64,000 bases of DNA from a virus: IMG/VR virus record IMGVR_UViG_3300044615_001997; one strand, written 5' to 3'. This document shows positions 1,740-27,098 of this stretch, piece by piece. Numbering within the stretch: position 1 is the stretch's first letter; the number at the start of each line of letters is the position of its first letter. The position numbers were made by a program, and so were the translations under genes. Under the pieces are notes generated by a model that was not told the DNA's origin, made no database searches, and saw only the letters and a program-made list of their open reading frames with translations.

Positions 1740-2378
1740 ATGAAAGATAAAATTACAGTAGAAAAACTTTTAGCAGATCATAAAAAATTGATCGATTCTG
1801 AGTCTAGAAAATATGCTGTAAATGTACCTCTTGTAACAGTGCAGATTGAGGCCTACAAATTAGCTAGAAAAGCTGCTGAAACCTATACTCCCGGAGATGT
1901 GAAGTTTAGTACATATCTAGTCAATAATTTAAAAAAGTTATCTAGAATCTCTACTCAGTATGGGAGCTCTATTCGTATGCCGGAAAATATTCAGTTTGGT
2001 ATAAATAAATTGAATATAGCTGAAAAAGATTTAGAAAGCTCTTTGGGTAGGGAGGCCACCGTTTCAGAATTATCTGACTACACCGGATTCAACCTTAAAA
2101 CCGTAGACAACTTATTGAAAAACAAAAAAACAATGGTTTCTATTAATAACTTATTAACCACCCCCACCATCATAGACAGTTCTAACGACGAATGGCTTTC
2201 TTTTGTTTATCACGATTTAACAGCTAAAGATAAAATTATATTCGAGCATAAAACCGGCTTTGGTGGTAAAAAAGTTATAGAGAATGATAAAATAGCTAAA
2301 AAATTAAATTTGTCGCAAGCACAGTTAAATAATAGAATAAATATTATCAGTGATATGATTAACCGAGGCTGGAAATAA
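1740..2378 (+). CDS. phage sigma70-family RNA polymerase sigma factor
   Basis: Region 2-like KFSTYL..IRMP, region 3-like LGREATVSELSDYTG, C-terminal HTH-like IAKKLNLSQAQL. Confidence 0.75.
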   Translation: MKDKITVEKLLADHKKLIDSESRKYAVNVPLVTVQIEAYKLARKAAETYTPGDVKFSTYLVNNLKKLSRISTQYGSSIRMPENIQFGINKLNIAEKDLESSLGREATVSELSDYTGFNLKTVDNLLKNKKTMVSINNLLTTPTIIDSSNDEWLSFVYHDLTAKDKIIFEHKTGFGGKKVIENDKIAKKLNLSQAQLNNRINIISDMINRGWK

Positions 2379-6755: not shown

Positions 6756-6779
6756 CATTAACGTATAATTGTAGAAAAT

Positions 6780-7355
6780 ATGATAAACACAGAAAGTACT
6801 AATTTGAACAAGTCCATTTCCGGATTCATAAAGGTATGGAAAACCTCGCCGGAAACAGGTGAGAGCCAGTTGATCGTAGACCAGCCTAATATGATTTTGT
6901 ACGGCGGGGCTAGACTAATGTCTTACGCTATTTCTGGAAGAGAAAATGCAAAAATTTGGGGAATGTACATTGGCTTTAATAACAACCCAAATGGCGAATT
7001 TACCAGACCCGTCATAGACCCATCTTATTCTCAACCATTTGCAAATTTAGATCCTGACGATGGATTTGGTTATTTAAGAGAGCCTTTAACATTTACTCCA
7101 ACTTATCTATCAGACGGCATTTATACAGATAATACCGCATTATTTAGCGTTATGGTAACGTCATCTACCTCCATTAATGCTACACCATTTTTGCATGATG
7201 TTAGCCGTATTTACGAGGTAGCTCTGGTAGGATCTTTAGATCCTTCCAACAGTACGAAGGACATAGTTTTTTCTAGAACAGGTTTTAACCCTGTTAAATA
7301 TGATACTAATTTTAATTTTACAATAACTTGGGGGATCAAATTCCTCGTAGACTAA
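6780..7355 (+). CDS. putative baseplate/tail-fibre attachment protein
   Basis: 191 aa. NMILYGGA.LM, IYEVALV, VFSR..F.PV..D.NFNFTITWGI pattern. Structural context. Confidence 0.45.
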   Translation: MINTESTNLNKSISGFIKVWKTSPETGESQLIVDQPNMILYGGARLMSYAISGRENAKIWGMYIGFNNNPNGEFTRPVIDPSYSQPFANLDPDDGFGYLREPLTFTPTYLSDGIYTDNTALFSVMVTSSTSINATPFLHDVSRIYEVALVGSLDPSNSTKDIVFSRTGFNPVKYDTNFNFTITWGIKFLVD

Positions 7356-7363
7356 TTTTAGCC

Positions 7364-9469
7364 ATGCCTATCACACCTTGGGTTCCTACAGTAAGAACGA
7401 TCAGAGACGGGGAAGAAGTTTCTCAGTCTGTGGTGAACGTACCTCTCGAACAATTAATTCAGAGGGAGCAGCACCTGTATGAAAAATTTGAAGAATTGCT
7501 CGGTAAATCTGTTCTCATTGCGTTTGGGCAACCAGTTTATCCTACAGAGCTGCAAGGGACCAAACCCCTACACCAAGATGAACTAAATATTGTTTATTTT
7601 AGAGAAGACTCTGGTGGTCGTGGTGTGGCTAGAGCTTTAACAGGGTTTTCTTCCACTAGTACTAAGGGTATGTATGCACCCAATAAGTCTAATTATTCTT
7701 TTGGTATTGTTAAAGCTATGTCTCCAGGAACGACTCCGTTGGTAGACACCTATATTGAGGGACTATGCGAGTTATCAATTGATTTAGACGATCCAGACCG
7801 TGGTTTAATTGAAGTCGAAAGAAACCATTTAAATGAGCCTGTCGTGGAACCTTTTGAAGTAGGTCCTTATTATTTATCCAGAAAATATCCTGGCAAGATA
7901 ACCAAAGATCCTGCAGGTATCCCAACTTATGTAGGATACGCTATATCTAAACGTAAATTTTTGTTACATGCCTCAGTTGACGAGTTTTCTCAATTTTTTA
8001 TTAACTACAGATATAATGTTTTGGATCGACCAGCCGCAACACCATTACTGACAGGAAGTACTTGGACGATACCCACAACCGGTAATCCAAATAGGCTTGG
8101 TTGGATAGCAGCTAATTCTAATAATTTACCTGGTTATTCAATTCCTTCAGGAGCTAAGTTTTTTTATTATATTCCTGAAGGACTATTGCTGCCTACTTCA
8201 CCAGACGCAGATTCATTGACAGAAAGTGAAAAAGTTGAGGCATCAGAATTAAAAGGATTACTTCCTCCTGTACCTTCAAACTTTGTAGAAATCAAAGCAA
8301 ATGGTATTACACAACGTTTGTTAGATGAGTACACACCGGACGGTATATATAAAATAGATAACTATGGTTTATGGTGGTTCGATGACCAGGCGGGATTTCA
8401 ACCTTGGGCAGATGACATTTTGTCGGAAGGTGTTTGGACTCCGAACGACTGGCTAGAATATAGGGGTAGTAACTTTAGAAGACCTAGGCTTTTTATATCT
8501 TTTTCTAAATTTAACCCAGCTTTGAGAACACAGTTAGTTAGTTCTCTAACTCCTTATAATGATTTGGAAAACTCTAATGTCCCTGCAGGTGAAAAAAATA
8601 ATAGTGAGGAATTTATAAAGTTTTATTTAAAGGAAACAATTACTTCAGCCGTAGTCAAAGAATCTAAGACAGGTGACTTGGCTGTAAAAGTTACACCTAA
8701 GTTTATTCCTAAAGGAGTCACAGGATCAGCTCCAATCCCACCGCAAGCACCTACAGCCACCTATACATCTGACAGAGGTGTAGCTGACCTATCTTTCGAC
8801 CAAGCAGCAGGAAAGTTTGTAAAAGTTTCTACACCGGTAGTAGCTAAAATAAATGGTCAGGGCGGAATAAATGTAACTCCGGCACAGAATCAACCAGGCG
8901 TATTCAACATATCATATATGTCTACAGGTATCTATGGTGCCATCGATTCAATAGAGCCTGTTAACGCTAGATTGGAGTTTAGAGGATTAAGTTCTTATTT
9001 AAAATTTCCATATGCTCAAACGATAACAGTTCCTTATGGTGTCATAGGTAAAATATTATTAACTAAAAAAGCTATAGCCGCTCCCGCTAATCTCAAAATA
9101 TATGTTCAAGCCTTCGGCACTGCGAGCTATGCACCAGAAGCTACCGATAAACAAATAGCTTTTACATTTGAATATGCTGCAACCACAGCTGCCAATAGTG
9201 AAGCTCCAACATCGGTCAAGATAGCAAATAAGTCTGTTTTAACTGCCGCAGTAAGCAGCTCGGTTGTTTTAACCACTCTCACACCAATAGAGGAAGGTTA
9301 TACTGCGTATGATGTAGTTAATCTTGAAGGTAACCTTGTTATCCCAGCTGCTAATATAGCCGAGGACACTGTAGTAAATTTTAAATTAATGCGAAACATC
9401 ACTGAAACCGGTAATTACTTAGGAGACCTAGGTATACTTGGTTTATACTGGGGTGTAGAACTAACATAA
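7364..9469 (+). CDS. putative tail/baseplate structural protein
   Basis: Start moved to ATG 7364. N-terminal IRDGEEVSQSVVNVPLEQLIQREQHLYE resembles tail-fibre N-termini. Confidence 0.5.
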   Translation: MPITPWVPTVRTIRDGEEVSQSVVNVPLEQLIQREQHLYEKFEELLGKSVLIAFGQPVYPTELQGTKPLHQDELNIVYFREDSGGRGVARALTGFSSTSTKGMYAPNKSNYSFGIVKAMSPGTTPLVDTYIEGLCELSIDLDDPDRGLIEVERNHLNEPVVEPFEVGPYYLSRKYPGKITKDPAGIPTYVGYAISKRKFLLHASVDEFSQFFINYRYNVLDRPAATPLLTGSTWTIPTTGNPNRLGWIAANSNNLPGYSIPSGAKFFYYIPEGLLLPTSPDADSLTESEKVEASELKGLLPPVPSNFVEIKANGITQRLLDEYTPDGIYKIDNYGLWWFDDQAGFQPWADDILSEGVWTPNDWLEYRGSNFRRPRLFISFSKFNPALRTQLVSSLTPYNDLENSNVPAGEKNNSEEFIKFYLKETITSAVVKESKTGDLAVKVTPKFIPKGVTGSAPIPPQAPTATYTSDRGVADLSFDQAAGKFVKVSTPVVAKINGQGGINVTPAQNQPGVFNISYMSTGIYGAIDSIEPVNARLEFRGLSSYLKFPYAQTITVPYGVIGKILLTKKAIAAPANLKIYVQAFGTASYAPEATDKQIAFTFEYAATTAANSEAPTSVKIANKSVLTAAVSSSVVLTTLTPIEEGYTAYDVVNLEGNLVIPAANIAEDTVVNFKLMRNITETGNYLGDLGILGLYWGVELT

Positions 9470-10386: not shown

Positions 10387-13300
10387 ATGTCTGCATACGA
10401 ATATTTAACAGTAAATAGTTTGACTACTTATCCGTTTAGAGACGGTAGAGCTGTTAATTCTATTCAACCTATAGATGCGGATGTTTTTTTAGACATTCTT
10501 TTTGTTGTTTATGACCCGACGATAAAACGTCCTTACATAAAACAAATAAAGTCTGAAGACGGAGGAGTGTCTATAGATTTTCATGATGTAGACGGAGATC
10601 TTAAAATTTTTACAGTTGAAATACCTTCGGCTGAATTTGTAAGTCATTATAAAAATTTTGATAAATCTTTTTTTGGATATATACCGAATGAATATAGGCC
10701 TAAGGCTGCAGTTAAATTAGTGTTTGGTCAGGGTATTTCTAAGATAGCAGATGTTCAATCTACCGTCGTATATACTCCCGATGAAACAGAGTTATCGCCA
10801 TCAGCAGTACAATATTCTGTCCCAGAGGTTTCTACTTTAGAGTTTGAGTCTTGGTTCCCGGACTTTGATAGTAAGAACTATAATCCTAGCGCAGGGCAGG
10901 ATATAATTTCTGTAAAAACTTATTTAAGGGAAGAAGAAGTTAAAATGCGTTATGGGTTTAATAACGTATTTAATTACTTAGCTCCGAGAACAATGTTTTT
11001 AGACGTAGCTAGGGGAGCTGGGCTGGGGCTGTACGACCCATGCGATAATATCCCACCGCACGATTTAATCACTAGAATAAATCAAGTTGAACCTGACCCA
11101 TCAGGTAATATTTATTTCAAAGTATCAGATTGTCATTCATTAAGATTGTTGACTGACGATGAGCGAAACAGCGCATTGGAAAGAATTTTGGCTGACGGTA
11201 CTGACTACGTTAATTTTAATGTTAAACATTATTTAAAATTTTGGGATCAACTACCTTATCAAAACTATAATGAAACTATTTCACCTAACGGAAAAAACGT
11301 TAATATTTTGGGGGACGGTCAAAACGGCACAATTAATTCTATTAATCATGGATTTGTTTTAGAAAATCACTGTAAACCTAAATGTCCTCATGAAAATTTA
11401 AATGCTTTTGCTGAATATTTAAACCGAGTAAAAGATGGAGTATCTGAACTTTTTAAAGTGGTTGAAAACCCTATTGAGACTTGCGGTTACGCCACTATCA
11501 ATGGAGCTATTTTAACAGCTACTAGTTTTTGTGACCAAAATATAATAAATTCTAATTGGCTCGAAGCTCCTCTGTGTAATCAAGGATTTAAAAAATATTT
11601 TCATGAAGGTAGAAAAATTAAAATTCGTTATAATAATGCTACTTTTTATAATCCTGAAATAGTGGAAGTAATCGAAGGTCAAAACGGTTTAAACACCCAG
11701 ATTGTGTTAAACCAAGAACTTCCAGATTTTCTACCAGGAGAACAGTATTTATTTAAAGTTTTAGACTTTGGTTTAGTTAATAAATTAAATTTTGAAATCA
11801 TTAAACATAATAATGCATTAATAACCACAAACTCACCATATATTGAGTTTAACTATGGTACTGTAGAGGCATTTAATAATGATGATGAATATGTTACATT
11901 TATAACAACAGTTACCGTTGTATATAATCCAAGTGAAGAAGAAATAACTGTCGATTTTACTTCTGCAGTAAACGATATAACTACCTTAATAGATACTTCG
12001 GTTAAGGTAAAATATCCCGACGGTGAAATACGTTACGAAGAAACGGAAGCGGTGGTACCTTGTAAGGGTTATGCTATTTGGGAAGCTATTTTTTATGTTC
12101 CTTGTAGTCCTGAGCTTCCCGCACCTCCAAATGAAGGACATGTTATAATTTCAGTGGTAAATCGCAGCACGGGAGAAATTTTAGAGAATGCTCCAAAAGA
12201 AGTAAAATTAAATAGTGCTAATTGTGTTAACATTGATATCAAGACAATACGAACCTCAGCTAAAGAAAACGATTTATTTAAATTTAACATAGTAAAAGCT
12301 TTAAATTTAAGTGATGTTGCAAACATATCTTTTGCGGGAAATATTCCTGCTTGGTTGAATAGAGACACTTCTTCTACTGGTGCAGTTATTCCAGGTATTG
12401 AAGATAATGAAGGATACCACCTTTGGGGGACACCAACGGCAAATAATCAAGGAATTTTAAATGAAGAGTTTTCTATAGATATAACGATAACTGCTTCTGG
12501 TGTGTTTAGAACAACATTATTTTTAAGCTATATCGCAAAACCTAGAATAATTTCACATACAAATGGACAAATTATAGAAATAAACCCTCCAGATACATTC
12601 ACTAGAACTTACACACAAGGATCACCGTTAATTAGAATAAATGCAACCAACACCCCAATTGATTATAGATTTGAATCTGCGATACCTGGTTTTGGTCAAG
12701 CTGGCGCAAATTCTAATAAATTTATAGGTAGATATGGGTATAATCCAACATTTGTTTTTCCAATAACTTATCCAGTTAGACTGTTTGCCATAAATAGTGC
12801 ATCTTCTGAGGAGGATGAACTGTATGTAGATATTTTTGTAAAAGTTTATAATGTTGGGCAGACAGCTTCAACAGCTTTTCAAGATATTGCATATTGTTTC
12901 ACTATTCCAAACCCAGATTCAGCAGCACTAACATTAATTTCTACACTACCTTTATGGTTAAATTTTGATAGAAATGCTGCCGAGTGTAATTTGAGCGGAT
13001 TAAATAGTTCAAATATTTCTGTTATTGAGCGCGTGGTTATTCGATACGATTATGCCAATGGCTTTGAAAATAGAGAGTATTCGATAGGCTACAGGGCACG
13101 CCCTGTTATAACTTACCCACCCGAGCAAGTTGGAAACAATATTTTCACATTAGAGTTACGACCCCCAGACTACACAGTTTCAGGGCTTTCTAAAGTTTAT
13201 AACGAGCAAAATCCTTTAATTAGTGTAAAAATTTTAGATGCCTCTAGTACCGGATTAGTTTACTCAGCCGAAGGACTACCTACAGGCTTAGAAATAAATG

Positions 13301-16300
13301 AATCTGGTAAGATTATAGGACAAATAGATGAGTCGGTTATTCCTGGAGATTATCTCATAACCTTAAGAGTGGCTGATCCGGCTTTTTCCGGAACATTAGG
13401 AATAGCGGTACGACAGATCAAATTGATTTTAATTGCCGATGAAAAATTGTTTATAGCTAGAGAAAACTCTAATTTTTGTTTAAAGTTTACTGAATTAGCT
13501 TCTGCATCTAGTTATACAGTAAAAGATTGGTTAGATGGAAAACCAACTTGGCTGACTGAAGCTAATAGAGTTGGAGCAGCTTGTCATTTAACTAATTCGG
13601 ATAATTTGAAGCCGAGCGGTGACTTAAGTAAAGACTATAGATTTACATTGGCGTACATCACAGCAACTAATCCACCCATACAGTTAGAAGTGAACTATCT
13701 TTTAAGGTATATAGCCAAACCAAGAATATTGTATCCACAAAATGGAGAAGTTTTTCAAATAGCTTCCGAAGATTTATCAGAGGTGGTATTTACTGAAGAA
13801 AATCCATTACTGTCTTTTGAAGTAGTCAATGATCCCACTAATTATGAAATAACTGGACTGCCATCAGGATTAAGTTTGGTAAATGGAAAAATTGTGGGAG
13901 CTGCTACAAACGCTAATCCTGTAGGAGATTATAATGTTACTTTGTATGCTAGCAATACAGCAGGTGTTTCTAGTATTAGTATAAAAATTAGCATAAAAAA
14001 TATCACTATTCAAAGAGCTTTTCAGCTTGATGCATTTTGTTATAAAATCACCGGAATTTCAAACGCACTATACTATTCTTTAGAGGGCGATAAACCAAAT
14101 TGGTTAACCTTCAATCCAGCTTCAAATGCTGTTTGCCCTGTAGGAAATTTATATGGAACACCTCCCATCAGCGCAAATCAAAGTGCATCATATGATTTAA
14201 TATTGGTAGCACACAGAGGTAGTGGGGAATTAAGACAAAGCTTTAAACTAGAATATTATGCTAGACCAAATATAACTTATCCTTTACCAGACACCGTTTT
14301 TACAATTTCACCACCAGACTATAATAACCTTTTATTCACAAGCACAAATCCACTATTCAAAATAGAGGCAGATAATAACCCTACTTCTTATAGGGTAAAT
14401 GGTTTTCCTGAAAGAACTTTTCGCGTAGACGGTAATGGTAATATTATAGGCAGTTCTGGTGCCACCATAACAGACACACAAATACCAGTACAGCTTTATG
14501 CTCGCAATGAGGCAGGTGAATCTACTCCTGTCAGAATCTTTATAGTTATTACAAACCAGATTAACACAATTACTTTTAATTATACAGCAGCTACACCTTG
14601 TGCTACTGGAGCAAAATATAAATTTGAACTCGAGGATCAACCTGAAAGCATCACATTAGTAGGGCATCCAACTTGGATAACATTTAACCCGAGTTTAACA
14701 ACCGATTGTAATTTAACTTTCGGCAATAATAGACCTGTTTTAACTACATCACAAACGATACCATTAACTCTTACTAGAAATTATCGTGGAGGCAATACCA
14801 AAGAAACATTTAATTTATTAATCACCACAATACCAATTATAACTAATCCAATAAACACAACTTTACCGACAAACAGAATACGTTATGTTATATCGCAGCC
14901 AGATTTTAATAATAGAATTTATTCTGTACAGTCACCACTTTTAACAATTACTGCCACAAATTCTCCAACAAACATAACAGCTTCAGGATTACCATCAAGT
15001 TTAAGTGTAGTAACTTCTGGGCCTGATATAGGCAAAGTAATAAGTGTCAATCAAAGTATTCCAGTATCTGAATTAGGCTTATTCATAGTAACCGCCACAG
15101 CTTCTAATGGGGCAGGTAGTTCTATGACAGTTGTTTTTGAGATCGAGGCTAAAAACGAAATAATAGAAATATCCACACGTCAAGGCGAGGCCATCAATAA
15201 TGAATTTTGTAAACTTATTACAAGGGACAGAGCAACATCTTATTCTATTGTAGCCGGAACATTATTGAATGGTTTAAATTTTTCAGGCTCTACAGATGCA
15301 GGCTGTAACTTTTTTGGAGTACCTTCGGGAGGTAATGACGAACTATCTATTTTAGATGTGAGAAGTAATTATGTAGGAGGATTTTCAACTTTTAGAATAA
15401 GATTTTCACATATAAATAAACCCAGCATTGTTAGATTTACGAGAAACGGCAATACTATTATAGATGACGCTTTATCTGTTTTACCTGGTGTTTACGTGGG
15501 CACGACTTTTACGGAAGAACTACCACTATTTTCAATAGATACTACAGGAAATCCTACCAGTTTTTATGCTGAAGGTTTCCCGCAAAATTCAACTTTATCT
15601 ATAAGCTGTAATGGTAAAGTTATAGGAACTATTAATCAAGCCGCTGCAGGTAAATATACTGTGATAATAACAGCTGTAAATGAGGCAGGCGAATCAGAAA
15701 AAAGAACAATATATTTAGACTTTTCTCAAGCAGTTCCAGTAATCACGTGGGAAAATCCTGACGATATTACACATCCAACCCCGCTTAATTCTATAGATCA
15801 TTTAAACGCTACAGCTAATGTTCCTGGGTCATTTGCATATTTACCACCAGCAGGCAACATTCTTTCTGCCAGTACGCAGCCAAGGGTGCTTACAGTTACG
15901 TTTACACCTACAGATCAAATTACTTACGCTACAGTAGCCAAATCCGTAACGATACGAGTTTTCAAGGCAACTCCCACAATAACGTGGAACACTCCATCAG
16001 CTATAAGTTACTATACCGCATTAACTGCAGCACAATTAAACGCAACGGCAAACATAGCAGGTACATTTGTATATAGTCCGGGGTTAGGACACATATTTAA
16101 TGCTGGGACGCATTCTATAACAGTAACATTTACACCTGTAGATACTACAAATTATAATTCTGCGACAAGGCAGACGGAATTAGTAGTTAACAAAATTACT
16201 GTTACCCCGAGCAATATCTACTGGTCTACTCCATCAAGTATTGTCTATGGTGTTGCTTTGAGCGGTACACAATTGAATGCGTTAGCTAGAATCAGTTCTA

Positions 16301-19200
16301 CTGATGCCACATCACCAGCAATACCCAGTAATTCAAGTTCTTATGTTTATTCTCCTGTTCTCGGAACAGTTTTGGCGGTGGGAACCCATAATTTAACTGT
16401 GACATTTGTTAGCAGCGATTCTACCAATTTTACTGTTACCCCCGTACAAAAAGTTGTAACAATTTCTGTGGTGGCTCAAGCGCCACCCATCACTTGGAAT
16501 ACACCAGCAGCCATTACCTATGGCACCCTGCTTAGTAGTACTCAATTAAACGCAACCAGTACCATAGCAGGATTAACTTATACTTATACTCCTACATTCG
16601 GAGCATTATTGAATGCAGGAACACGAACACTATCTCTCACGGTTTCAGGAAACCCAAACTACGCTTCAACTACCGTGACGAGAGAAATTTTAGTAAATAA
16701 AGCAGCTTCTTCCATTACATTTACATCTCCAACCTCAGGGAGAGTAGGAGATCACATATTATTAACTACCGAGAAAACAGGTTCAACCAGTCCGGTTGTT
16801 TATAGCTCGGCTTCTACAGCTATTATAAATATTATTAATGTAAATAGGGCTAATTTGTTAACTGCAGGAACGGCTTCGGTAACAGCTCAAGTCGAGGAAG
16901 ATGCCAACTTTTTAGCCGCAGCAAGATCTCAAAACATCACCATCACTCGTGGTCTTAGTACTGTAACTATAACTTCCACAAATTCTACTAAAGTAGGAAA
17001 TACATTTACTTTAGCTGCTACAGCCACCGGATCTACAGGCCAAATATCTTTTAGTAGTAGTAACGCTAATTTGTTGAGTATAACTGGAGGTTCTATCGCA
17101 ACTGCTCTTGGGTCTGGGCAAGTCACACTCACTGCCTCTGTGGCTGCAACCGCAAATTACGATTCTGGCAGCAGTACACAAACTATAACAATCGCTAAAG
17201 GTGATTCAAACATTGCCTCGATAAATATGGTAAATCTTTTCCAGGGAGAAACCTCAACAATCACAACACAAAGAACAGGCTCCACCGGCGCAATCACATA
17301 CACCAGCAGCAACCCCGCAGTCATAAGTATTTCTGGTAACATAGCTACATTTAATTCCGGAGGAACAGCTAATATCACAGCAACATTGGCGGAAGATAAT
17401 AATTATTTGGGCACCACTAGAACACAATCTTTCACAGTTACACCCAAATCAACAGTAACAATAACATGGTCAGGTGTAACAACTTTAACTTTAGGGCAAA
17501 CTGTGCAGGTTATACCTTTTTCAACTACCGCCCCAGCTTTAGCTGATTCTCTCATAACTGCAACAACCGCAGATTCTACAATTATAAGAGTTATAACTGT
17601 AGGTGGTATAGTAGGACCTGTACTAGAAGCAATAAAGCCAGGAACTACGCAAATAACGCTCAGAGTTCCAGGCACAATAGATAGACAAGAGGCTACTTTA
17701 ATTGTAGCCATGACAGTTCAAAAAATTTCCAGCACATTAACGATAAATAATTTAATTAATAATAATTTAACTGTTCCATTATCTAGCACCAGCTATTTCA
17801 TAGGATATTCTATTTCCCCAACATCCCACGTTTATGGTGGTACTGCCCCAGCATTTGATAATTTAACAAGTAGTGTTACCTCGGTTGCCACTCGCGACCC
17901 AAATAGTTCTTTTGGTCACGTTAATTTACTTTCTGTTGGAACTACCACAATTACATTTAATAGACCAACTAATACATTTTGGGAAGCTGTCTCTAGAAGT
18001 TTTACATTAACAGTAACCAAAGGTTCTTCTACGTTAAACATTACTGGGCCTACTTCCGCCAAAGTCGGGCAATCTGGAACAATAACGTTTACAAAAACAG
18101 GATCTACAGCAACTCCAGTTTTTACAGCTGCCAGCGGAACAGGATTAATTATAACAGGCAACGCCGTAAGCTATACAAAAGCAGGTTCCCAAACACTCAC
18201 AGGAACTTTAGCTGGGGACACTAACTATGATGGGATTACTTCAACAAGAACATTAAATGTTTCTAAGGGGGATACGTCTTTATCTTTTGAGTATTTTGTA
18301 AATAGTGTATGGACTGCGACTAAACCCACCTCTGTCCTTCCAGGTCAAAGCTTGAGAATTAGACGAGTTGTCTCAGGCTCTACGGGTACAGTTACTTTAA
18401 CCGCCACACCCAGCGAAAACTTAGGAGCAACATCTGAATGCGTTGGAAGTAATTCAGGTGTTTGTGAAGCCGTAATCGTATTTAACAACACATCTCTAGG
18501 CGTTCAAACTATTACTTTAAGCGTTGCTACAGATACAAATTATAATGCAGCAACAGTTACAACAAACATAACAATACAAAAAGGAAGTTCCACATTAACT
18601 GTAGGAACTCCCAATAGCTTAACTTATGGCACACCAGTAGCTCTCAGCAATATTCAATTAACTAGAACAGGTACTACTGGAGCACCAGTATTCAGTACCA
18701 ATGACAGTAACATACAATTTACACAGCAAGGATTAACTTTTTCTTCAGTCAATACGTTGAGTAATCCCGCACCGAACCCTGGGTCTGGAACATACAGTGT
18801 TACGTTAGCTGCAGATGACCAGTATAATTCTATTACAGCCAGTAAAACAGTGACATTACTTAAAGGAACACCGACTTTCACTTTTGAGTATAGTGCAGTA
18901 ATTTCTGGAGGCGCTTCATTCACATGTGCTACGCCTATGACTAACGTCAAACCTAATATCCAGGCAGGAGCCCGTAGTGTGCTTGTTAGAATTAATCCGA
19001 ATATGCAGCCTAATCAATTCGCAACTTTCTCTTTCTCTGCGACTGGTGGAACAGCTCAACCGATACCTCTAGCTTGTAATTTTTATAACTTCTTGTATAC
19101 CTCCCCGCAAACAACAGGGCAAGTAACGGTAACGATAAATTATTCGGGAGATGGCAACACTAACGCAACTTCAACTACTATAACTTTTAATATCGTTTAA
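10387..19200 (+). CDS. giant Ig-like repeat tail fibre/adhesin (paralog 2)
   Basis: 2937 aa. Shared paralog N-terminus, then GLP.GL....G.I.G repeats, four ITW.TP..I.Y...L...QLNA repeats and Thr/Ser-rich Ig-like repeats. Confidence 0.7.
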   Translation: MSAYEYLTVNSLTTYPFRDGRAVNSIQPIDADVFLDILFVVYDPTIKRPYIKQIKSEDGGVSIDFHDVDGDLKIFTVEIPSAEFVSHYKNFDKSFFGYIPNEYRPKAAVKLVFGQGISKIADVQSTVVYTPDETELSPSAVQYSVPEVSTLEFESWFPDFDSKNYNPSAGQDIISVKTYLREEEVKMRYGFNNVFNYLAPRTMFLDVARGAGLGLYDPCDNIPPHDLITRINQVEPDPSGNIYFKVSDCHSLRLLTDDERNSALERILADGTDYVNFNVKHYLKFWDQLPYQNYNETISPNGKNVNILGDGQNGTINSINHGFVLENHCKPKCPHENLNAFAEYLNRVKDGVSELFKVVENPIETCGYATINGAILTATSFCDQNIINSNWLEAPLCNQGFKKYFHEGRKIKIRYNNATFYNPEIVEVIEGQNGLNTQIVLNQELPDFLPGEQYLFKVLDFGLVNKLNFEIIKHNNALITTNSPYIEFNYGTVEAFNNDDEYVTFITTVTVVYNPSEEEITVDFTSAVNDITTLIDTSVKVKYPDGEIRYEETEAVVPCKGYAIWEAIFYVPCSPELPAPPNEGHVIISVVNRSTGEILENAPKEVKLNSANCVNIDIKTIRTSAKENDLFKFNIVKALNLSDVANISFAGNIPAWLNRDTSSTGAVIPGIEDNEGYHLWGTPTANNQGILNEEFSIDITITASGVFRTTLFLSYIAKPRIISHTNGQIIEINPPDTFTRTYTQGSPLIRINATNTPIDYRFESAIPGFGQAGANSNKFIGRYGYNPTFVFPITYPVRLFAINSASSEEDELYVDIFVKVYNVGQTASTAFQDIAYCFTIPNPDSAALTLISTLPLWLNFDRNAAECNLSGLNSSNISVIERVVIRYDYANGFENREYSIGYRARPVITYPPEQVGNNIFTLELRPPDYTVSGLSKVYNEQNPLISVKILDASSTGLVYSAEGLPTGLEINESGKIIGQIDESVIPGDYLITLRVADPAFSGTLGIAVRQIKLILIADEKLFIARENSNFCLKFTELASASSYTVKDWLDGKPTWLTEANRVGAACHLTNSDNLKPSGDLSKDYRFTLAYITATNPPIQLEVNYLLRYIAKPRILYPQNGEVFQIASEDLSEVVFTEENPLLSFEVVNDPTNYEITGLPSGLSLVNGKIVGAATNANPVGDYNVTLYASNTAGVSSISIKISIKNITIQRAFQLDAFCYKITGISNALYYSLEGDKPNWLTFNPASNAVCPVGNLYGTPPISANQSASYDLILVAHRGSGELRQSFKLEYYARPNITYPLPDTVFTISPPDYNNLLFTSTNPLFKIEADNNPTSYRVNGFPERTFRVDGNGNIIGSSGATITDTQIPVQLYARNEAGESTPVRIFIVITNQINTITFNYTAATPCATGAKYKFELEDQPESITLVGHPTWITFNPSLTTDCNLTFGNNRPVLTTSQTIPLTLTRNYRGGNTKETFNLLITTIPIITNPINTTLPTNRIRYVISQPDFNNRIYSVQSPLLTITATNSPTNITASGLPSSLSVVTSGPDIGKVISVNQSIPVSELGLFIVTATASNGAGSSMTVVFEIEAKNEIIEISTRQGEAINNEFCKLITRDRATSYSIVAGTLLNGLNFSGSTDAGCNFFGVPSGGNDELSILDVRSNYVGGFSTFRIRFSHINKPSIVRFTRNGNTIIDDALSVLPGVYVGTTFTEELPLFSIDTTGNPTSFYAEGFPQNSTLSISCNGKVIGTINQAAAGKYTVIITAVNEAGESEKRTIYLDFSQAVPVITWENPDDITHPTPLNSIDHLNATANVPGSFAYLPPAGNILSASTQPRVLTVTFTPTDQITYATVAKSVTIRVFKATPTITWNTPSAISYYTALTAAQLNATANIAGTFVYSPGLGHIFNAGTHSITVTFTPVDTTNYNSATRQTELVVNKITVTPSNIYWSTPSSIVYGVALSGTQLNALARISSTDATSPAIPSNSSSYVYSPVLGTVLAVGTHNLTVTFVSSDSTNFTVTPVQKVVTISVVAQAPPITWNTPAAITYGTLLSSTQLNATSTIAGLTYTYTPTFGALLNAGTRTLSLTVSGNPNYASTTVTREILVNKAASSITFTSPTSGRVGDHILLTTEKTGSTSPVVYSSASTAIINIINVNRANLLTAGTASVTAQVEEDANFLAAARSQNITITRGLSTVTITSTNSTKVGNTFTLAATATGSTGQISFSSSNANLLSITGGSIATALGSGQVTLTASVAATANYDSGSSTQTITIAKGDSNIASINMVNLFQGETSTITTQRTGSTGAITYTSSNPAVISISGNIATFNSGGTANITATLAEDNNYLGTTRTQSFTVTPKSTVTITWSGVTTLTLGQTVQVIPFSTTAPALADSLITATTADSTIIRVITVGGIVGPVLEAIKPGTTQITLRVPGTIDRQEATLIVAMTVQKISSTLTINNLINNNLTVPLSSTSYFIGYSISPTSHVYGGTAPAFDNLTSSVTSVATRDPNSSFGHVNLLSVGTTTITFNRPTNTFWEAVSRSFTLTVTKGSSTLNITGPTSAKVGQSGTITFTKTGSTATPVFTAASGTGLIITGNAVSYTKAGSQTLTGTLAGDTNYDGITSTRTLNVSKGDTSLSFEYFVNSVWTATKPTSVLPGQSLRIRRVVSGSTGTVTLTATPSENLGATSECVGSNSGVCEAVIVFNNTSLGVQTITLSVATDTNYNAATVTTNITIQKGSSTLTVGTPNSLTYGTPVALSNIQLTRTGTTGAPVFSTNDSNIQFTQQGLTFSSVNTLSNPAPNPGSGTYSVTLAADDQYNSITASKTVTLLKGTPTFTFEYSAVISGGASFTCATPMTNVKPNIQAGARSVLVRINPNMQPNQFATFSFSATGGTAQPIPLACNFYNFLYTSPQTTGQVTVTINYSGDGNTNATSTTITFNIV

Positions 19201-21340: not shown

Positions 21341-22234
21341 ATGGATAATGTAATTGAATGGTTAAATGAAAATGAGCTAAGGGCTTACCCTCTTATCGAG
21401 GGCGAGAGATCTGAACTTGTACCTGAAAATTTTCTATTAGACTTGATTTTATTGGTTAATGAAAATGTTTCAGATCTGCATTTAGTAAAGTTAATGAATA
21501 TAGCTACTGAAACAGAGGGAATCTCGGTTCAATTTTCTGGAGAAGGGAATACTTTTTTTGTACCTCGCAATCAAGCCTACCCATTGTACGTAAGGAATCA
21601 AAACGGCAGTTTAGCGGTTTTTGGCCCAGGTGCAGAACAATTTATGGATAATTTAAACACTTCGGTAATTCTCTGTGATATACCTGTAGAGCCTTCCAAC
21701 ATTTTTAAGTTTGATATGGCTTGGCTCGGGGTGTCTAGTATATCTACGTACAAGAATTATCAGTCTATTGAAGATAGCTATGTACCTTTGACTCCTCTAC
21801 AATTAAGTAGCGTTGGCAACTATTCTCTCGAGGAAGACGTTGAATTTTATCCTGGGTATAATTATAAGATAGACTTTAGTGACGGAAAAATAAACATGAC
21901 TGCTGGGTTTAAATTAGGTATGGCTATGGACTGCACTACTCAATTTATATCTCCAGAGTTAAAAGATTGTGACAAAGTCATCTCCTACATCAACGGTATT
22001 CCTGCAGACTCTGCCGGAGCTTTTAGATTTACTTCCGGAGAAAATATTTATATGTTCGATGGAACTACTGTAAATGAAGATATACCTGACACTAATCCTA
22101 AAATAGAGGAGTTGTATTACTCACAAGGCAAACCACCTATTTCAAGAATTAATCCAAATACTCTATTTATCGGGTTGACATTTCTCGAATCTGATTTATG
22201 TTCACCTATACAACTTTTACCTACTAATAATTAA
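21341..22234 (+). CDS. tail fibre/adaptor paralog 5
   Basis: WLNENELRAYPL motif, ISYINGIPADSAG. Confidence 0.5.
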   Translation: MDNVIEWLNENELRAYPLIEGERSELVPENFLLDLILLVNENVSDLHLVKLMNIATETEGISVQFSGEGNTFFVPRNQAYPLYVRNQNGSLAVFGPGAEQFMDNLNTSVILCDIPVEPSNIFKFDMAWLGVSSISTYKNYQSIEDSYVPLTPLQLSSVGNYSLEEDVEFYPGYNYKIDFSDGKINMTAGFKLGMAMDCTTQFISPELKDCDKVISYINGIPADSAGAFRFTSGENIYMFDGTTVNEDIPDTNPKIEELYYSQGKPPISRINPNTLFIGLTFLESDLCSPIQLLPTNN

Positions 22235-23310: not shown

Positions 23311-23829
23311 ATGAAAGCGGTAATAAATAAATGCCATGGCGGGTTTAATCTTTCTCCTAAGGCGATAAAAAAATACTGTGAATTAAAAGGCATGCCTTGT
23401 TTTTTATTTTCTTATGACTACGCTCAAAATAAACATGTTTTAATTGATGAAGAAAAAGCAGAGCAACTAGGTTTTTGGGTGGCTTATAAGGTGGAAAATC
23501 CTGATGAATTAATAAACTTTGTACATCCAGAAGAGCAACCACCGGAAGGTTTATTTGGTGATGGCTTAGAGCAATGGAATGCGTTCCAACTCAGTAAAGC
23601 TGTAGAAGCCACTATTCAAAATAATGAAAATTTAAAAAATTCTGTAATTGCTCCAGGAAATAATCGAGCAGAGATTGAATTAATACAAACTGTTGAAGAG
23701 TTAGGGTTAGAGGCTTCTGGAAACTTCAGTAATTTGGTAGTTATAGAAATTCCTGACGACATAGAGTGGTTTGTAGTAAGTAGTGGTGGTAAAGAACACA
23801 TCGCAGAAAAGCATAGAATATGGGAATAA
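23311..23829 (+). CDS. conserved phage hypothetical protein
   Basis: MKAVINKCHGGFNLS...VEELG..ASG..S.L.VIEIPDDIEW...E.IAEKHR pattern, which I recall as common in phages. Confidence 0.7.
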   Translation: MKAVINKCHGGFNLSPKAIKKYCELKGMPCFLFSYDYAQNKHVLIDEEKAEQLGFWVAYKVENPDELINFVHPEEQPPEGLFGDGLEQWNAFQLSKAVEATIQNNENLKNSVIAPGNNRAEIELIQTVEELGLEASGNFSNLVVIEIPDDIEWFVVSSGGKEHIAEKHRIWE

Positions 23830-23830
23830 G

Positions 23831-24025
23831 ATGATAAAATTTATATTTATTTTATTTTTATTTTTTAGTTTTTTAATCTCTATAGTTTCTTTAAACTGTA
23901 AAATTAATAAACTTACGTTAGCTACAGAAAAATCGAGAAATGAATTAACTGTGTTAAATAATCAATTAAAAGAAAGTAATGTTTTAATTGGTGAAATTGA
24001 CACTGCTTTAGAGCTGCCAGAATAA
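23831..24025 (+). CDS. small membrane-anchored coiled-coil protein
   Basis: ATG 23831. Hydrophobic MIKFIFILFLFFSFLISIV followed by a heptad-like tail. Confidence 0.5.
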   Translation: MIKFIFILFLFFSFLISIVSLNCKINKLTLATEKSRNELTVLNNQLKESNVLIGEIDTALELPE

Positions 24026-24028
24026 CCG

Positions 24029-24265
24029 ATGCATATGGAATTAAATACTCCTATCGACTCTGAAAGTATCAGACAAAAGAACAAGCTTTCGAGAGAAAAT
24101 GCTCAACTACATATATTAGCTGAGGATATGGCTAGAGTGTTAAGGAGGTGGCTTGATGACTCCAACATGAAATACTTCTGGACGAGTGAAGATAAAGAAG
24201 CTCTAAATGCCTATGATAGATTTAAAGAAGATGTTATTTGGAAACAATATAACCCCCCCAGTTAA
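24029..24265 (+). CDS. hypothetical protein
   Basis: 78-aa ORF in an operon arrangement. Confidence 0.55.
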   Translation: MHMELNTPIDSESIRQKNKLSRENAQLHILAEDMARVLRRWLDDSNMKYFWTSEDKEALNAYDRFKEDVIWKQYNPPS

Positions 24266-24288
24266 TTGCTCCTATTTTTTGTTATAAT
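24250..24288 (+). promoter_or_regulatory. putative promoter, extended -10 TGTTATAAT with upstream TAACCCCC box
   Basis: TATAAT at 24283-24288, at the head of the non-coding region. Confidence 0.5.
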
Positions 24289-24418
24289 ACTATGCTGACG
24301 GTTTGTCGGTCTATTAATTGAAAATACTTTCTTAATAGACCTATTCTTAAATAGCAATATACTTTTTTTAAAATTTATTTTACTGGTTAATTTTTAATAA
24401 TTTTTAGCTGGCAGCTAT

Positions 24419-24612
24419 TGTTGCGCTCGGGTTATATATAACAAAGATCTATTATATATACGCTCAACGGGAATGACTCCCACCACATAAAGGAACAACT
24501 TACCTGGTTTAGTTGTATGGCGATAATCTGAAATGGTCCGCAGCTATTTCAGCAAACCGCTCGCTAGATAGTCGATGTGCGCAAATTGACTATATTAGAA
24601 CGTGGCGCAACA
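24419..24612 (+). ncRNA. putative multi-stem structured RNA (~195 nt)
   Basis: Closing helix TGTTGCGC/GCGCAACA encloses five hairpins, e.g. CTGAAATGG/CTATTTCAG, ATAGTCGAT/ATTGACTAT, ACAACT/AGTTGT. Confidence 0.5.
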
Positions 24613-24616
24613 CCCA

Positions 24617-24645
24617 TTGACTTTTAGTGTGTATTTATATATACT
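24617..24645 (+). promoter_or_regulatory. sigma70-type promoter
   Basis: TTGACT (24617-22), 17-nt spacer, TATACT (24640-45), immediately before the first hairpin of the large RNA. Confidence 0.7.
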
Positions 24646-24650
24646 AATAA

Positions 24651-25366
24651 TCTGGCCGTGTGCGGCCATAAGATAACCCCAGTAATGGGGACAAAGTGAA
24701 CTCTCATCACCGTGAGAGTTTGCGGGGATCTTCGATCCCTCTGAGCACACAAGGAGGTAATCATCTTTTCTGCCTGTTGAGGGTTAGAAAAGTTGCTCGT
24801 CGGTTGAGACCCGATGGGTGAGTGCGAAAGTACAATAAGGAAACCTTTAGCTGATATGCGAGCAACTGGACTGGTAATCCAGCAATCGCGTTTAGCAGCC
24901 TAGAAGTTGTCGCTAGAGCAATCTAGAGGCAACTACGAAACAGTGACGACCAGTCACAGGACTAGTAGCGCATCGATTCCCTCAAAAGGGGAGTTGGCGG
25001 AACCCGCAAGCACTAGTTCGGAAATCTCGGGTGAACATGACTTGTCTCGAAAGAGACTCATTAACCAAAAAGGAAAGCCTTGCGGCTTCTGCAGTGAAAG
25101 ATGACTTCGTCCCAAGTTACGCTTGGGGTTTGCTGGCTCCCTAAGGCCAGTATGATAGAGGTTAGGATAATCTTTGGATACCGTTGCTGGTATTGGAGGG
25201 TGCGTAGCCTTCACAGAGAGGAACTAGCGAACAACTGTGGTTGAAACCCTGACTCAGGGAAATTGAGTCGTCATTGCTGGGTACGTTGCAAAACAACGTG
25301 GATAAAACGGAGAATCAATATACTCCGTCAGAGACCAGTACTTATAGCTGTAATCTCAAGCTATAT
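24651..25366 (+). ncRNA. large structured ncRNA, GOLLD-like (~715 nt)
   Basis: No credible ORF, dense hairpins with GNRA loops (CCCCA-GTAA-TGGGG, GTCTC-GAAA-GAGAC, GTGC-GAAA-GTAC). The 3' part CATTG...GTGGATAAAACGGAGAATCAATATACTCCGT...GCTGTAATCTCAAGC resembles my recollection of the GOLLD 3' domain. Not verified with a covariance model. Confidence 0.6.
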
Positions 25367-25370
25367 AATT

Positions 25371-25655
25371 TTCTCGACTTGGCGAGTATAAATAGGATGT
25401 AAGCCAAGAGCGTTGCAGGTATGAGTATCTGCAGAATTCGGAGCGGTAGACCTTCTAGAGGTTACGGCTCCCTGGCCCAGACTTGAGTCACTTCAGGTCA
25501 AAAGTGTACTGAGGCACGTGAGTGAACCATACAACAGGTACATTGCCAGAACAAAAACGGGGGTGCTTCTTAATTTGTTGCCCGTATACTTTCAGGGAGG
25601 TGTGGAGATCAAAATCATTGATTACTCTTGTACGGAAAAATCTCGTACACCTCCC
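25371..25655 (+). ncRNA. putative structured RNA (boundaries uncertain)
   Basis: Stems CTTGGC/GCCAAG, GCAGGTA/TATCTGC, GAGC.GTA.ACCT/AGGTTAC.GCTC, ACGGG/CCCGT, and GGGAGGTGT/ACACCTCCC (25595-25655). Confidence 0.4.
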
Positions 25656-25661
25656 AAACTT

Positions 25662-25783
25662 TTGTAGGATATGCTGAGGGTTCTGGAGGATATGGTGGGG
25701 ATCATGGGCTCCAGCACGATAGGTTGCTGCCAGTCGTGGCATCGGTAAGCATATATAATTGAGAGTGATGCACTCACCTACAA
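25662..25783 (+). ncRNA. putative structured RNA module
   Basis: Closing helix TTGTAGG/CCTACAA. Inner stems ATATGCT/AGCATAT, TGGAG/CTCCA, CACGA/TCGTG, GAGTG/CACTC. Confidence 0.45.
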
Positions 25784-25788
25784 CTTAC

Positions 25789-25912
25789 TTTGAATGCGTG
25801 ACGAAAGTCTCGTTACGAATAGTGCTAAAAAATAACTCGCCCATAACTATACACCGACAGGATTAGGCGAAAGTCGGGGAAGCAATAATCCACGTTAGCA
25901 TACGCATTCAAA
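25789..25912 (+). ncRNA. putative structured RNA module
   Basis: 11-bp closing helix TTTGAATGCGT/ACGCATTCAAA. Inner TGCTAA/TTAGCA, GGATT/AATCC and two GAAA tetraloop hairpins. Confidence 0.5.
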
Positions 25913-26027
25913 AATTTGTTTTGGCTTACTGAGCTGCTGTGGTGAGCTCGGCAAGGAACCTACAAAGTTTCACAACAGTGAGTGCCACAGCACTTGTGAA
26001 ACTAGGAACCAGCCAAAACAAATTTTT
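25910..26027 (+). ncRNA. three-way-junction RNA with complementary (kissing) loops
   Basis: 17-bp perfect closing helix. Two hairpins whose loop regions GCTGTGG and CCACAGC are complementary. Confidence 0.6.
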
Positions 26028-26034
26028 AGCTATT

Positions 26035-26365
26035 TGAGGTTAGCCTCATAAGGTGCACGATGGCCGACTACCATCTAGTGAGATCCTACTCATGATTGAA
26101 GCCAGGTCGTTCTGGTAAAATGGGGCTGGTTACCGCAACCCGCTGACGGTCAGCGAGAGTCAGAAAGTTTAACTTTCTTCAGGCGAGGCGCGTTTATGTA
26201 TCTAGGACAGGCAAGATCAGTCGTGTCTGCATGATGGTACTGCGTCGTAGACCTTGAGACACGACAGCCGCAAGTTTCGAACGGGTAGCCTCCTCCGTTA
26301 ATGGGTGACTAGGGAACATGTGCGGCGGCGCATAGGACTCCAAAAGTAGAATCAATAAACCCGCC
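26035..26365 (+). ncRNA. putative structured RNA module(s)
   Basis: TGAGG/CCTCA, GATGG/CCATC, TGAAG/CTTCA. Closing helix GGCGcGTTTAT/ATAAACcCGCC (26187-26365) encloses GTCGTGTCT/AGACACGAC. Confidence 0.45.
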
Positions 26366-26407
26366 AAAAATTTTTGTGGTATCTAATACATACACACATA
26401 CCACTGA

Positions 26408-26447
26408 CCCAGCAGTGAAGCGACACAATCTGGGCACTTTTTTAGCT
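26408..26447 (+). terminator. possible terminator ending the RNA array
   Basis: CCCAG/CTGGG stem followed by ACTTTTTTAGCT. Confidence 0.35.
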
Positions 26448-26457
26448 ATTAAACATT

Positions 26458-26778
26458 ATGGACAACACAATATTCAATTATGGCGGAATTCCTGTAGTCA
26501 TTGACGTTTCATATGACTACGAGGAAGATTGTACAAAAGCCTGGCACGATTTGAATCATGCCGAAACAGGCGAAAATATCACAACTATCGATTGGTCACC
26601 TTATTCTATTCCTTCTAATGAGGAAGTTGAGTTATGGTTGGGATTAGGTGCCCCAGGGGGAGTTTATCGACAAGGAGAGCACTACGAGTCTCACCACAAC
26701 TTCAATTCCGAAGTACTCCAACTCGTTATAGAGGAAGAGGCTACCGGTAAAGAACCTACCTATATAATTAAAAGATAG
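26458..26778 (+). CDS. hypothetical protein
   Basis: 106-aa acidic ORF with an ATG in an A/T-rich context. Confidence 0.6.
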   Translation: MDNTIFNYGGIPVVIDVSYDYEEDCTKAWHDLNHAETGENITTIDWSPYSIPSNEEVELWLGLGAPGGVYRQGEHYESHHNFNSEVLQLVIEEEATGKEPTYIIKR

Positions 26779-26784
26779 ATCGTG

Positions 26785-26813
26785 TTGACAAACAACCGAC
26801 ACAACTATATGTT
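26785..26813 (+). promoter_or_regulatory. possible sigma70-type promoter
   Basis: Perfect TTGACA (26785-90), 17-nt spacer, imperfect -10 TATGTT. Confidence 0.4.
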
Positions 26814-26906
26814 TTAGATACTTGGGGTAACCACTAACCCTCTGGTAATAGGTATTGCAAAGAAAATGGAAAGTTTCTGTGAGTAAATCCTGCCCCAAGT
26901 ATCTAA
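26814..26906 (+). ncRNA. putative small structured RNA or leader element
   Basis: 14-bp perfect inverted repeat TTAGATACTTGGGG/CCCCAAGTATCTAA enclosing two hairpins, ending 3 nt before ATG 26910. Confidence 0.45.
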
Positions 26907-26909
26907 TTT

Positions 26910-27098
26910 ATGTATACAGTAGAATTAAAGTTTAAAGGAGTGGATTATAAAATAGGCATAATCATGACTTCTTGGGATAGTTTTAACTTAGAGCTTAGAA
27001 CACGAGAACCTCTTTCAGGAGACGATTTCCAAGGATTAAGGAACTACCTCGAAGAGGAAGGTTATATAGATATGGCCAGAGAACACAAATTTAGTTAA
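26910..27098 (+). CDS. hypothetical protein
   Basis: 62-aa ORF, first of a tightly packed run. Confidence 0.55.
   Translation: MYTVELKFKGVDYKIGIIMTSWDSFNLELRTREPLSGDDFQGLRNYLEEEGYIDMAREHKFS

Follow-up and report, generated by a model that had tools for sequence, protein, structure and literature searches.

The GOLLD RNA family was reportedly introduced by Weinberg et al. 2009, and the Pistol ribozyme is said to have been reported by Weinberg et al. 2015. Pistol, a self-cleaving RNA, was described by Harris et al. 2015 (PMC4604425). The structures available for GOLLD show how far its members can differ in size and assembly. The env-38 GOLLD, 833 nt long, was resolved by cryo-electron microscopy (cryo-EM) as a 14-mer (PMC12286853), whereas the 700-nt GOLLD of S. 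agalactiae, in which several 5' helices are missing, forms a 12-mer (PMC12990946). Cages have been published for both of these lengths and for the 3' domain alone, and the 5' domain is variable in the family (PMC12286853, PMC12990946). A literature search, outside which subscription papers lay, found no link between GOLLD and Pistol or any other self-cleaving ribozyme. Such a link is suggested by the DNA analysed here, a 64,000-nucleotide stretch (the window) of the IMG/VR virus record IMGVR_UViG_3300044615_001997. Judged by homology, positions 24654-25365 of the window are a real, highly diverged GOLLD RNA of ~712 nt, both halves of which are homologous to GOLLD. The best explanation overall, and a probable one, is that this RNA stands first in a ~2-kb non-coding island and is bounded by a Pistol ribozyme. 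The locus adds to a known family a new, divergent member that is, unusually, bounded by a ribozyme.

The initial annotation had proposed a structured region of ~715 nt ending in TATAGCT-GTAATCTCA-AGCTATA, with a GOLLD-like 3' end of ~120 nt. The likeness proves to be far more extensive. In a covariance-model search (cmsearch) of 23500-27000 at a permissive threshold, repeated on the whole record, the Rfam model RF02032 aligns non-truncated, positions 1-416 of 416, to 24958-25362 with 141.2 bits and E 1.2e-38. In the same interval ROOL, OLE and raiA remain without a match up to E 10. Non-canonical pairs (NC line of the alignment) account for 9 of the ~98 consensus pairs, and a sequence-only profile of the 3' domain also matches the locus (E 6.5e-10). 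The terminal hairpin is where it had been placed, with TATAGCT at 25343-25349, GTAATCTCA at 25350-25358 and AGCTATA at 25359-25365. Its conserved loop, GUAAUCUCA in the RNA, is intact at 25350-25358 and identical at the end of all 27 comparison GOLLDs. The whole RNA (24652-25366) folds with z -7.45 against shuffles, while three coding controls lie between -0.05 and -1.25. The cryo-EM study gathered GOLLD members by cmsearch at E <1e-5 (PMC12286853); the E value obtained here lies far below that, so the locus counts as a GOLLD member, and on these sequence comparisons its membership is very probable.

The comparison set consists of 27 GOLLDs from phage contigs, collected with a loose 3'-end pattern that yields mostly chance matches, then a span-length filter and confirmation by the covariance model at 172-332 bits. 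The present RNA scores below every one of them, and in a tree of 3' domains it forms a very long branch of 1.34 changes per site, so the word divergent used in the initial annotation is apt. The GOLLD of a second record discussed below (L230) is also a long branch, which makes tree placement impossible for either. Within the 3' domain, the variable linker holds one GAAA-capped hairpin, and ARAGORN finds no tRNA embedded in it.

RF02032 covers the 3' domain only, and the 5' half had to be recognized by other means. Pairwise blastn of the upstream region against the 27 comparison GOLLDs shows no similarity. Sequence-only searches between GOLLDs (blastn, single-sequence nhmmer) fail generally, and profiles are required. 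A profile hidden Markov model (HMM) built from 19 mutually alignable canonical 5' domains matches 24641-24893 with E 1.7e-11 and 33.1 bits, outdoing the profile of the same kind on the 3' domain. Canonical GOLLDs start with a P1 hairpin, a UAAAUAA-type linker, a second hairpin and AUAAAGUGAA. The same order is found here from 24654, as hairpin GGCCGUGUGCGGCC, then AUAAGAUAA, a hairpin CCCC-AGUAAU-GGGG, and ACAAAGUGAA.

Base pairing in this half is retained as well. A 5' consensus structure of 113 pairs was built from the 19 other sequences, with the sequence under study excluded. When it is laid on the 5' domain, 60 pairs are canonical, 24 are non-canonical and 29 are deleted. Canonical pairs thus make up 60 of the 84 alignable ones (71%), 24 of them kept through double-sided changes, against 25-40 (30-48%) in a control in which the partner was slid by 1-3 columns. 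The domain folds with z -5.0. Its 304 nt compare with 384-420 nt in canonical members, the difference being mostly a multi-hairpin insert of ~90 nt that is gone. The coordinates of all features are collected in Table 1.

Table 1. Features of the GOLLD-Pistol island and its promoter candidate, in window positions.
Feature	Position	Strand	Basis or remark
Sigma-70-like promoter candidate	24617..24645	+	TTGACT (24617-24622), 17 nt, TATACT (24640-24645)
GOLLD 5' domain, compact, 304 nt	24654..24957	+	Profile HMM and pair retention
GOLLD 3' domain	24958..25362	+	RF02032 match; half of the family conserved universally
Variable linker of GOLLD 3' domain	25021..25087 (approximate bounds)	+	Unpaired model positions ~63-136
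Terminal GOLLD hairpin	25343..25365	+	Loop GUAAUCUCA, 7-bp stem, then UAAUUUU
Pistol self-cleaving ribozyme	25372..25439	+	RF02679, 47.4 bits (gathering 34.5), model 1-68
Structured RNA poor in open reading frames, ~1 kb	25440..26457	+	Between Pistol and the next gene (ATG 26458)

The likenesses to known GOLLDs are therefore many: the entire 3'-domain model, the terminal GUAAUCUCA loop, the variable linker, the canonical 5' start and a phage-borne setting, with a length close to that of the S. agalactiae GOLLD (~700 nt). The differences are a score under the Rfam cut-off, the very long branch, a 5' domain ~90 nt shorter than 384-420, a promoter-like site at the 5' end, the remoteness of any tRNA, and a Pistol that replaces the tRNA or terminator at the 3' end.

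The Pistol begins 10 nt past the last position aligned to the GOLLD model. Its helices P1, P2 and P3 are all present, and six Watson-Crick pairs join the P1 loop with the junction in the pseudoknot. These pairs, CUUGGC/GCCAAG, differ from the consensus CUGGGC/GCCCAG by a compensatory G-C to U-A change. The residues implicated in Pistol catalysis are A32, G33, G40, C41 and G42 of env25 (PMC6154101). Equivalents of all five are present, and the segments UAAGC and GAGCGU are found. The ribozyme is thus like RF02679 in its helices, pseudoknot, core residues, phage association and above-threshold score. It is unlike a typical Pistol in its linker (G-A, not G-GU), in having a giant non-coding RNA as its upstream neighbour, and in the next open reading frame (ORF) lying 1 kb away. 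If the ribozyme is active, the predicted cut lies between G25434 and A25435. The 3' end of the Pistol (window 25429-25439) reads CTGCAGAATTC, in which PstI and EcoRI recognition sites overlap; as these nucleotides also make up the paired strands of P3 and P2, chance is the most likely explanation, rather than an artefact of cloning.

The place that the Pistol occupies is one that other elements fill elsewhere. Eight of the 27 comparison GOLLDs are followed, 8-14 nt past their 3' end, by the start of a same-strand tRNA, and in ~16 of the loci a T-run follows the GOLLD, mostly with a terminator hairpin 30-60 nt further on. With its 10-nt spacing the Pistol fills the tRNA position. The 5' end of a tRNA is an RNase P site, so a tRNA in this position would set the 3' end of the GOLLD. 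Around the present locus, as the initial annotation had noticed, there is no neighbouring tRNA: ARAGORN reports zero in the 64-kb window, and the only three in the 121-kb record each lie >40 kb from the GOLLD. The accompanying proposal, that structured RNAs take the place of tRNAs at the flanks, holds in substance, as the 3' neighbour is a Pistol above its cut-off and the farther flanks fold beyond shuffles while matching no family.

A mechanism can be proposed from this arrangement. Transcription would start at ~24651-24654 from the sigma-70-like promoter, and the GOLLD would fold and, by homology with env-38 and S. agalactiae, build a homo-oligomeric cage of RNA only, with 10 to 14 subunits; fewer than 14 is the likelier number, given the shortened 5' cap domain. 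A terminator scan found no plus-strand terminator-like site in 24652-26457, which makes read-through of the polymerase likely, and transcription would continue past the GOLLD through the Pistol. Cleavage at G25434/A25435 would then free the GOLLD, carrying a ~70-nt tail and a 2',3'-cyclic phosphate, from a downstream structured RNA or mRNA, which would gain a 5'-hydroxyl end. In this way the Pistol would do the end-defining job that a tRNA or terminator appears to do at other GOLLD loci.

Searches for the same association in other phages returned its mirror image. Among 66 phage Pistol loci, a same-strand GOLLD lies just downstream of the Pistol in L234/L244/L189, in L226 and in L184 with L036 (one contig). 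The gap from Pistol to GOLLD in these loci is 308-361 nt, the size of a 5' domain, and in both L226 and L184 the last nucleotide of the Pistol is also where hairpin P1 starts, so that the cut would fall ~5 nt before the GOLLD. These Pistol-first GOLLDs form one clade in the 3'-domain tree with 99/100 support, and no tRNA occurs within 1.5 kb downstream of them. Both they and the present locus have a Pistol abutting a same-strand phage GOLLD with no adjacent tRNA. Theirs stands at the 5' end of the GOLLD, whereas the one studied here stands at the 3' end, and the 5' domains differ. A profile of the clade's 5' domain gives E 0.35 on the present one, which is no match. Because the 5' domain is canonical (E 1.7e-11) and not clade-like, and the Pistol is at the opposite end, the association here probably arose independently of that in the Pistol-first clade.

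The order GOLLD-then-Pistol was not found a second time, either in the viral, genome and metagenome collections searched with a strict pattern or among the phage Pistol loci. When a GOLLD end with a Pistol behind it was sought by the strict pattern, 1 viral, 4 genome and 9 metagenome contigs matched, all by chance and none with an Rfam match; the pattern demands exact motifs at the junction, so that divergent junctions escape it. No Pistol was detected in any of the 27 confirmed GOLLD records by a search that is positive on the present record. A related case is L230 (IMGVR_UViG_3300030382_002200), where positions 6282-8220 hold a Pistol, ~1.1 kb that is poor in ORFs, and then a GOLLD of 130 bits. 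Its Pistol scores 51.7 bits with a scissile C-U, and the intervening ~1.1 kb has no ORF >68 aa. L230 is the second Pistol-linked GOLLD below the gathering threshold. Like the present locus, it is a ~2-kb non-coding island made of a Pistol, a sub-threshold GOLLD and ~1 kb of unassigned RNA. Its parts come in another order, however, and beyond the Pistol and GOLLD motifs no sequence similarity is detected.

Two further observations concern these comparison records. Rfam tmRNA matches of 75.2 and 45.3 bits occur at L234:8287-8713 and 6216-6329 (minus strand), ~2-4 kb from the Pistol-GOLLD pair. In L220:688-1430 and L232:4613-6640, two or three Pistols lie within 0.7-2 kb, each between small ORFs, in what look like ribozyme-punctuated operons.

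Several observations weigh against a functional GOLLD transcribed from its own promoter and bounded by an active Pistol. The 141.2 bits of the 3' domain do not reach the curated 150-bit gathering score of RF02032. For this reason default Rfam annotation overlooks the GOLLD, and the Pistol is the sole match when the window is scanned at gathering thresholds. The Pistol itself scores 47 bits, compared with 52-75 bits for most phage Pistols, and its P3-P2 linker is G-A instead of G-GU, 1 nt short. A scissile G-U (or N-N) after the P3-closing G is not found here, the order being P3, G, A, P2. Among 59 distinct phage Pistols the linker GGT is by far the commonest (36 parsed directly, ~45 after hand correction), the rest being GGC, GAU, GGA and C-U, and none of these parsed copies has a G-A or shortened linker. 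Natural Pistols do differ at the scissile positions, but with a linker that is 1 nt short and has no equal among the parsed copies, a cleavage-competent Pistol is only moderately favoured on its sequence. Promoter-like sites matching at least 10 of 12 hexamer positions number 55 on both strands of the AT-rich record, as against 54 +/- 9 in dinucleotide shuffles, which makes a hexamer match uninformative by itself. The searches found no relative with the GOLLD-then-Pistol order, which leaves the arrangement without comparative support. Finally, a cleaved GOLLD would keep a ~70-nt tail, which may not be compatible with cage assembly.

One alternative assigns the Pistol chiefly to what lies downstream. 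It would supply a 5'-hydroxyl end to the ~1-kb RNA or to the mRNA at 26458, and the GOLLD 3' end would be made separately, for instance by partial termination at the terminal hairpin and UAAUUUU. This overlaps with the favoured explanation and differs from it only in which product matters; it is a serious but clearly less likely option. The usual context of the ribozyme speaks for it: phage Pistols (68 copies) start a median of 5 nt behind the upstream ORF, and an ORF starts within 80 nt downstream in 29 of 64. The precise end goes to the RNA 3' of the Pistol in L226 and L184, and here too a hairpin begins exactly at the Pistol 3' end, at 25440. In most GOLLDs the terminal hairpin is immediately followed by a T-run, to which UAAUUUU would correspond. 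That run has only four Ts, however, and follows an AU-rich stem, and the terminator scan made no call. The next ORF is 1 kb off, unlike the case of typical intercistronic Pistols, and the kilobase in between has neither a known family nor relatives.

This downstream kilobase has the marks of a structured RNA. Between 25440 and 26457 there is no ORF >84 aa and none with a Pfam family. Its GC content is 0.47 against ~0.35 around it, and it folds with z -4.17. A sub-module at 25910-26027 has a closing helix of 17 bp and folds with z -5.5. No Rfam family matches at E up to 10, and relatives were found neither by blastn against GenBank phages nor by comparison with L230, the five Pistol-GOLLD records and all retrieved loci. 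A second GOLLD after the Pistol was considered and rejected, as 23500-27000 holds no further match to RF02032 (E up to 10) or to the 5' profile. The segment could serve as leader to the operon at 26458, or it could contain one or several new RNAs. Exact copies of the motif TTTTTAGCTAT lie at 26023-26033 and 26439-26449, and further copies at 2292-2302 (minus strand) and 5299-5309 (plus strand). At up to one mismatch the motif occurs 15 times in the window, compared with 4.9 +/- 2.3 in shuffles, and 0 of 100 shuffles reach 15. The two exact copies in the non-coding island stand at module boundaries, one preceding the ATG at 26458 by 9 nt, and the motif may be a phage regulatory or terminator-associated element.

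The second alternative concerns the other end of the RNA. The initial annotation had given the GOLLD its own consensus promoter, TTGACT-N17-TATACT. The site is present as described and, with a 10/12 match, is the top sigma-70-like site in 24000-26800. The hexamers themselves carry no weight, given the chance frequency noted above, and the part of the claim that stands is the placement. The -10 element stops 8 nt short of the first conserved nucleotide of the GOLLD, in hairpin P1; at ~2.7e-4 same-strand sites per base, the chance of a site in this 9-nt slot is estimated at roughly 0.2%. From this placement, and not from the strength of the match, we infer that host RNA polymerase would transcribe the GOLLD, and that the promoter is reasonably likely to be a real transcription start.

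Were the promoter coincidental, the GOLLD would be internal to a longer transcript starting in or before 24266-24616, with its 5' end made by processing. Many GOLLDs indeed lie inside tRNA arrays and are apparently processed from longer precursors (PMC5737381), and sites of at least 10/12 arise at chance frequency in this phage. The region just upstream of the promoter, 24419-24612, also folds beyond shuffles (z -3.6); it matches no family and may represent either an independent small RNA or a section of a longer precursor. The close spacing of the -10 element and the GOLLD start argues against such a precursor, as does a weak terminator-like hairpin at 24294-24310, behind the upstream gene. 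A coincidence is less likely than a real start, though well short of dismissal. The 350 nt upstream show no similarity to L230, the five Pistol-GOLLD records or any retrieved locus. In many main-group GOLLD loci (L122-L140) a motif GTTCTTTGAA(A) stands 12-90 nt upstream of the first hairpin and might be a promoter or processing signal common to the group; it is absent from the present window.

That the GOLLD is a remnant in decay, its Pistol dead and the element without function, is very improbable. The GOLLD score is the lowest examined except for that of L230 (130 bits) and lies under the Rfam cut-off, the branch is long, ~90 nt of the 5' domain have been lost, and the scissile linker of the Pistol has a one-nucleotide deletion. 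Decay is difficult to reconcile, however, with a full-length model alignment in which so few pairs are non-canonical, a fold at z -7.45, many 5'-domain pairs preserved by double changes, and an invariant loop GUAAUCUCA and Pistol core that are both intact. Large phage genomes are not known to keep 2 kb of dead sequence. A reduced 5' domain is, moreover, shared by the functional S. agalactiae GOLLD (PMC12990946). A last reading, in which the region is no RNA gene or represents a new class of large RNA without kinship to GOLLD, would accord with the lack of a GOLLD match at the Rfam default gathering threshold, and can be dismissed in view of E 1.2e-38 over the full model, the independent 5'-profile match and the lack of a plausible ORF.

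The surroundings are those of a large tailed phage, as indicated by genes around the RNA island for a baseplate wedge protein, a large terminase, a DNA polymerase and an SbcC-like nuclease. The source record is a 121,470-bp IMG/VR virus with a completeness of ~62% by CheckV. A single ORF of 2937 aa (window 10387-19200) lies ~5 kb upstream of the island, beside tail and baseplate genes. ORFs of at least 100 aa stop at 23829 and resume at 26458, and the last ORF before the gap, of 78 aa, ends at 24265, leaving a gene-poor gap of ~2.2 kb with a GC content of 0.40-0.46 against ~0.35 in its surroundings. A coding role for the gap was considered and rejected, since its small ORFs (65, 86, 84 and 57 aa) have no Pfam family. 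The whole 2.2-kb gap has no blastn match among GenBank phages. The gene at 23311-23829 led to 21 distant loci, and of the 17 searched none has a GOLLD or a Pistol; the genes at 26458-26778 and 21341-22234 returned zero relatives.

Taken together with the Pistol-first clade, these results allow a joint reading, put forward tentatively, in which ribozymes and tRNAs are interchangeable end-defining modules of GOLLD. Pistol would have been recruited independently at least twice, at the 5' end in one clade and at the 3' end here, and the released ~1 kb could be a new large RNA acting with the cage. The frequent tRNA neighbours of GOLLD had prompted ideas of tRNA cargo or co-regulation, and cryo-EM has shown that the RNA forms cages. 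A ribozyme in the tRNA slot, together with the mirror arrangement elsewhere, suggests that such neighbours serve to cut the GOLLD from its precursor. If the modules are indeed interchangeable, what GOLLD needs is precise termini and release from a precursor, not tRNA cargo. The two GOLLDs at 141 and 130 bits are missed at the gathering threshold, which means that surveys run at that threshold under-count the family. The 712-nt RNA, as a natural variant with a compact 5' domain, offers a handle on the way in which cage stoichiometry is set by 5' cap size.

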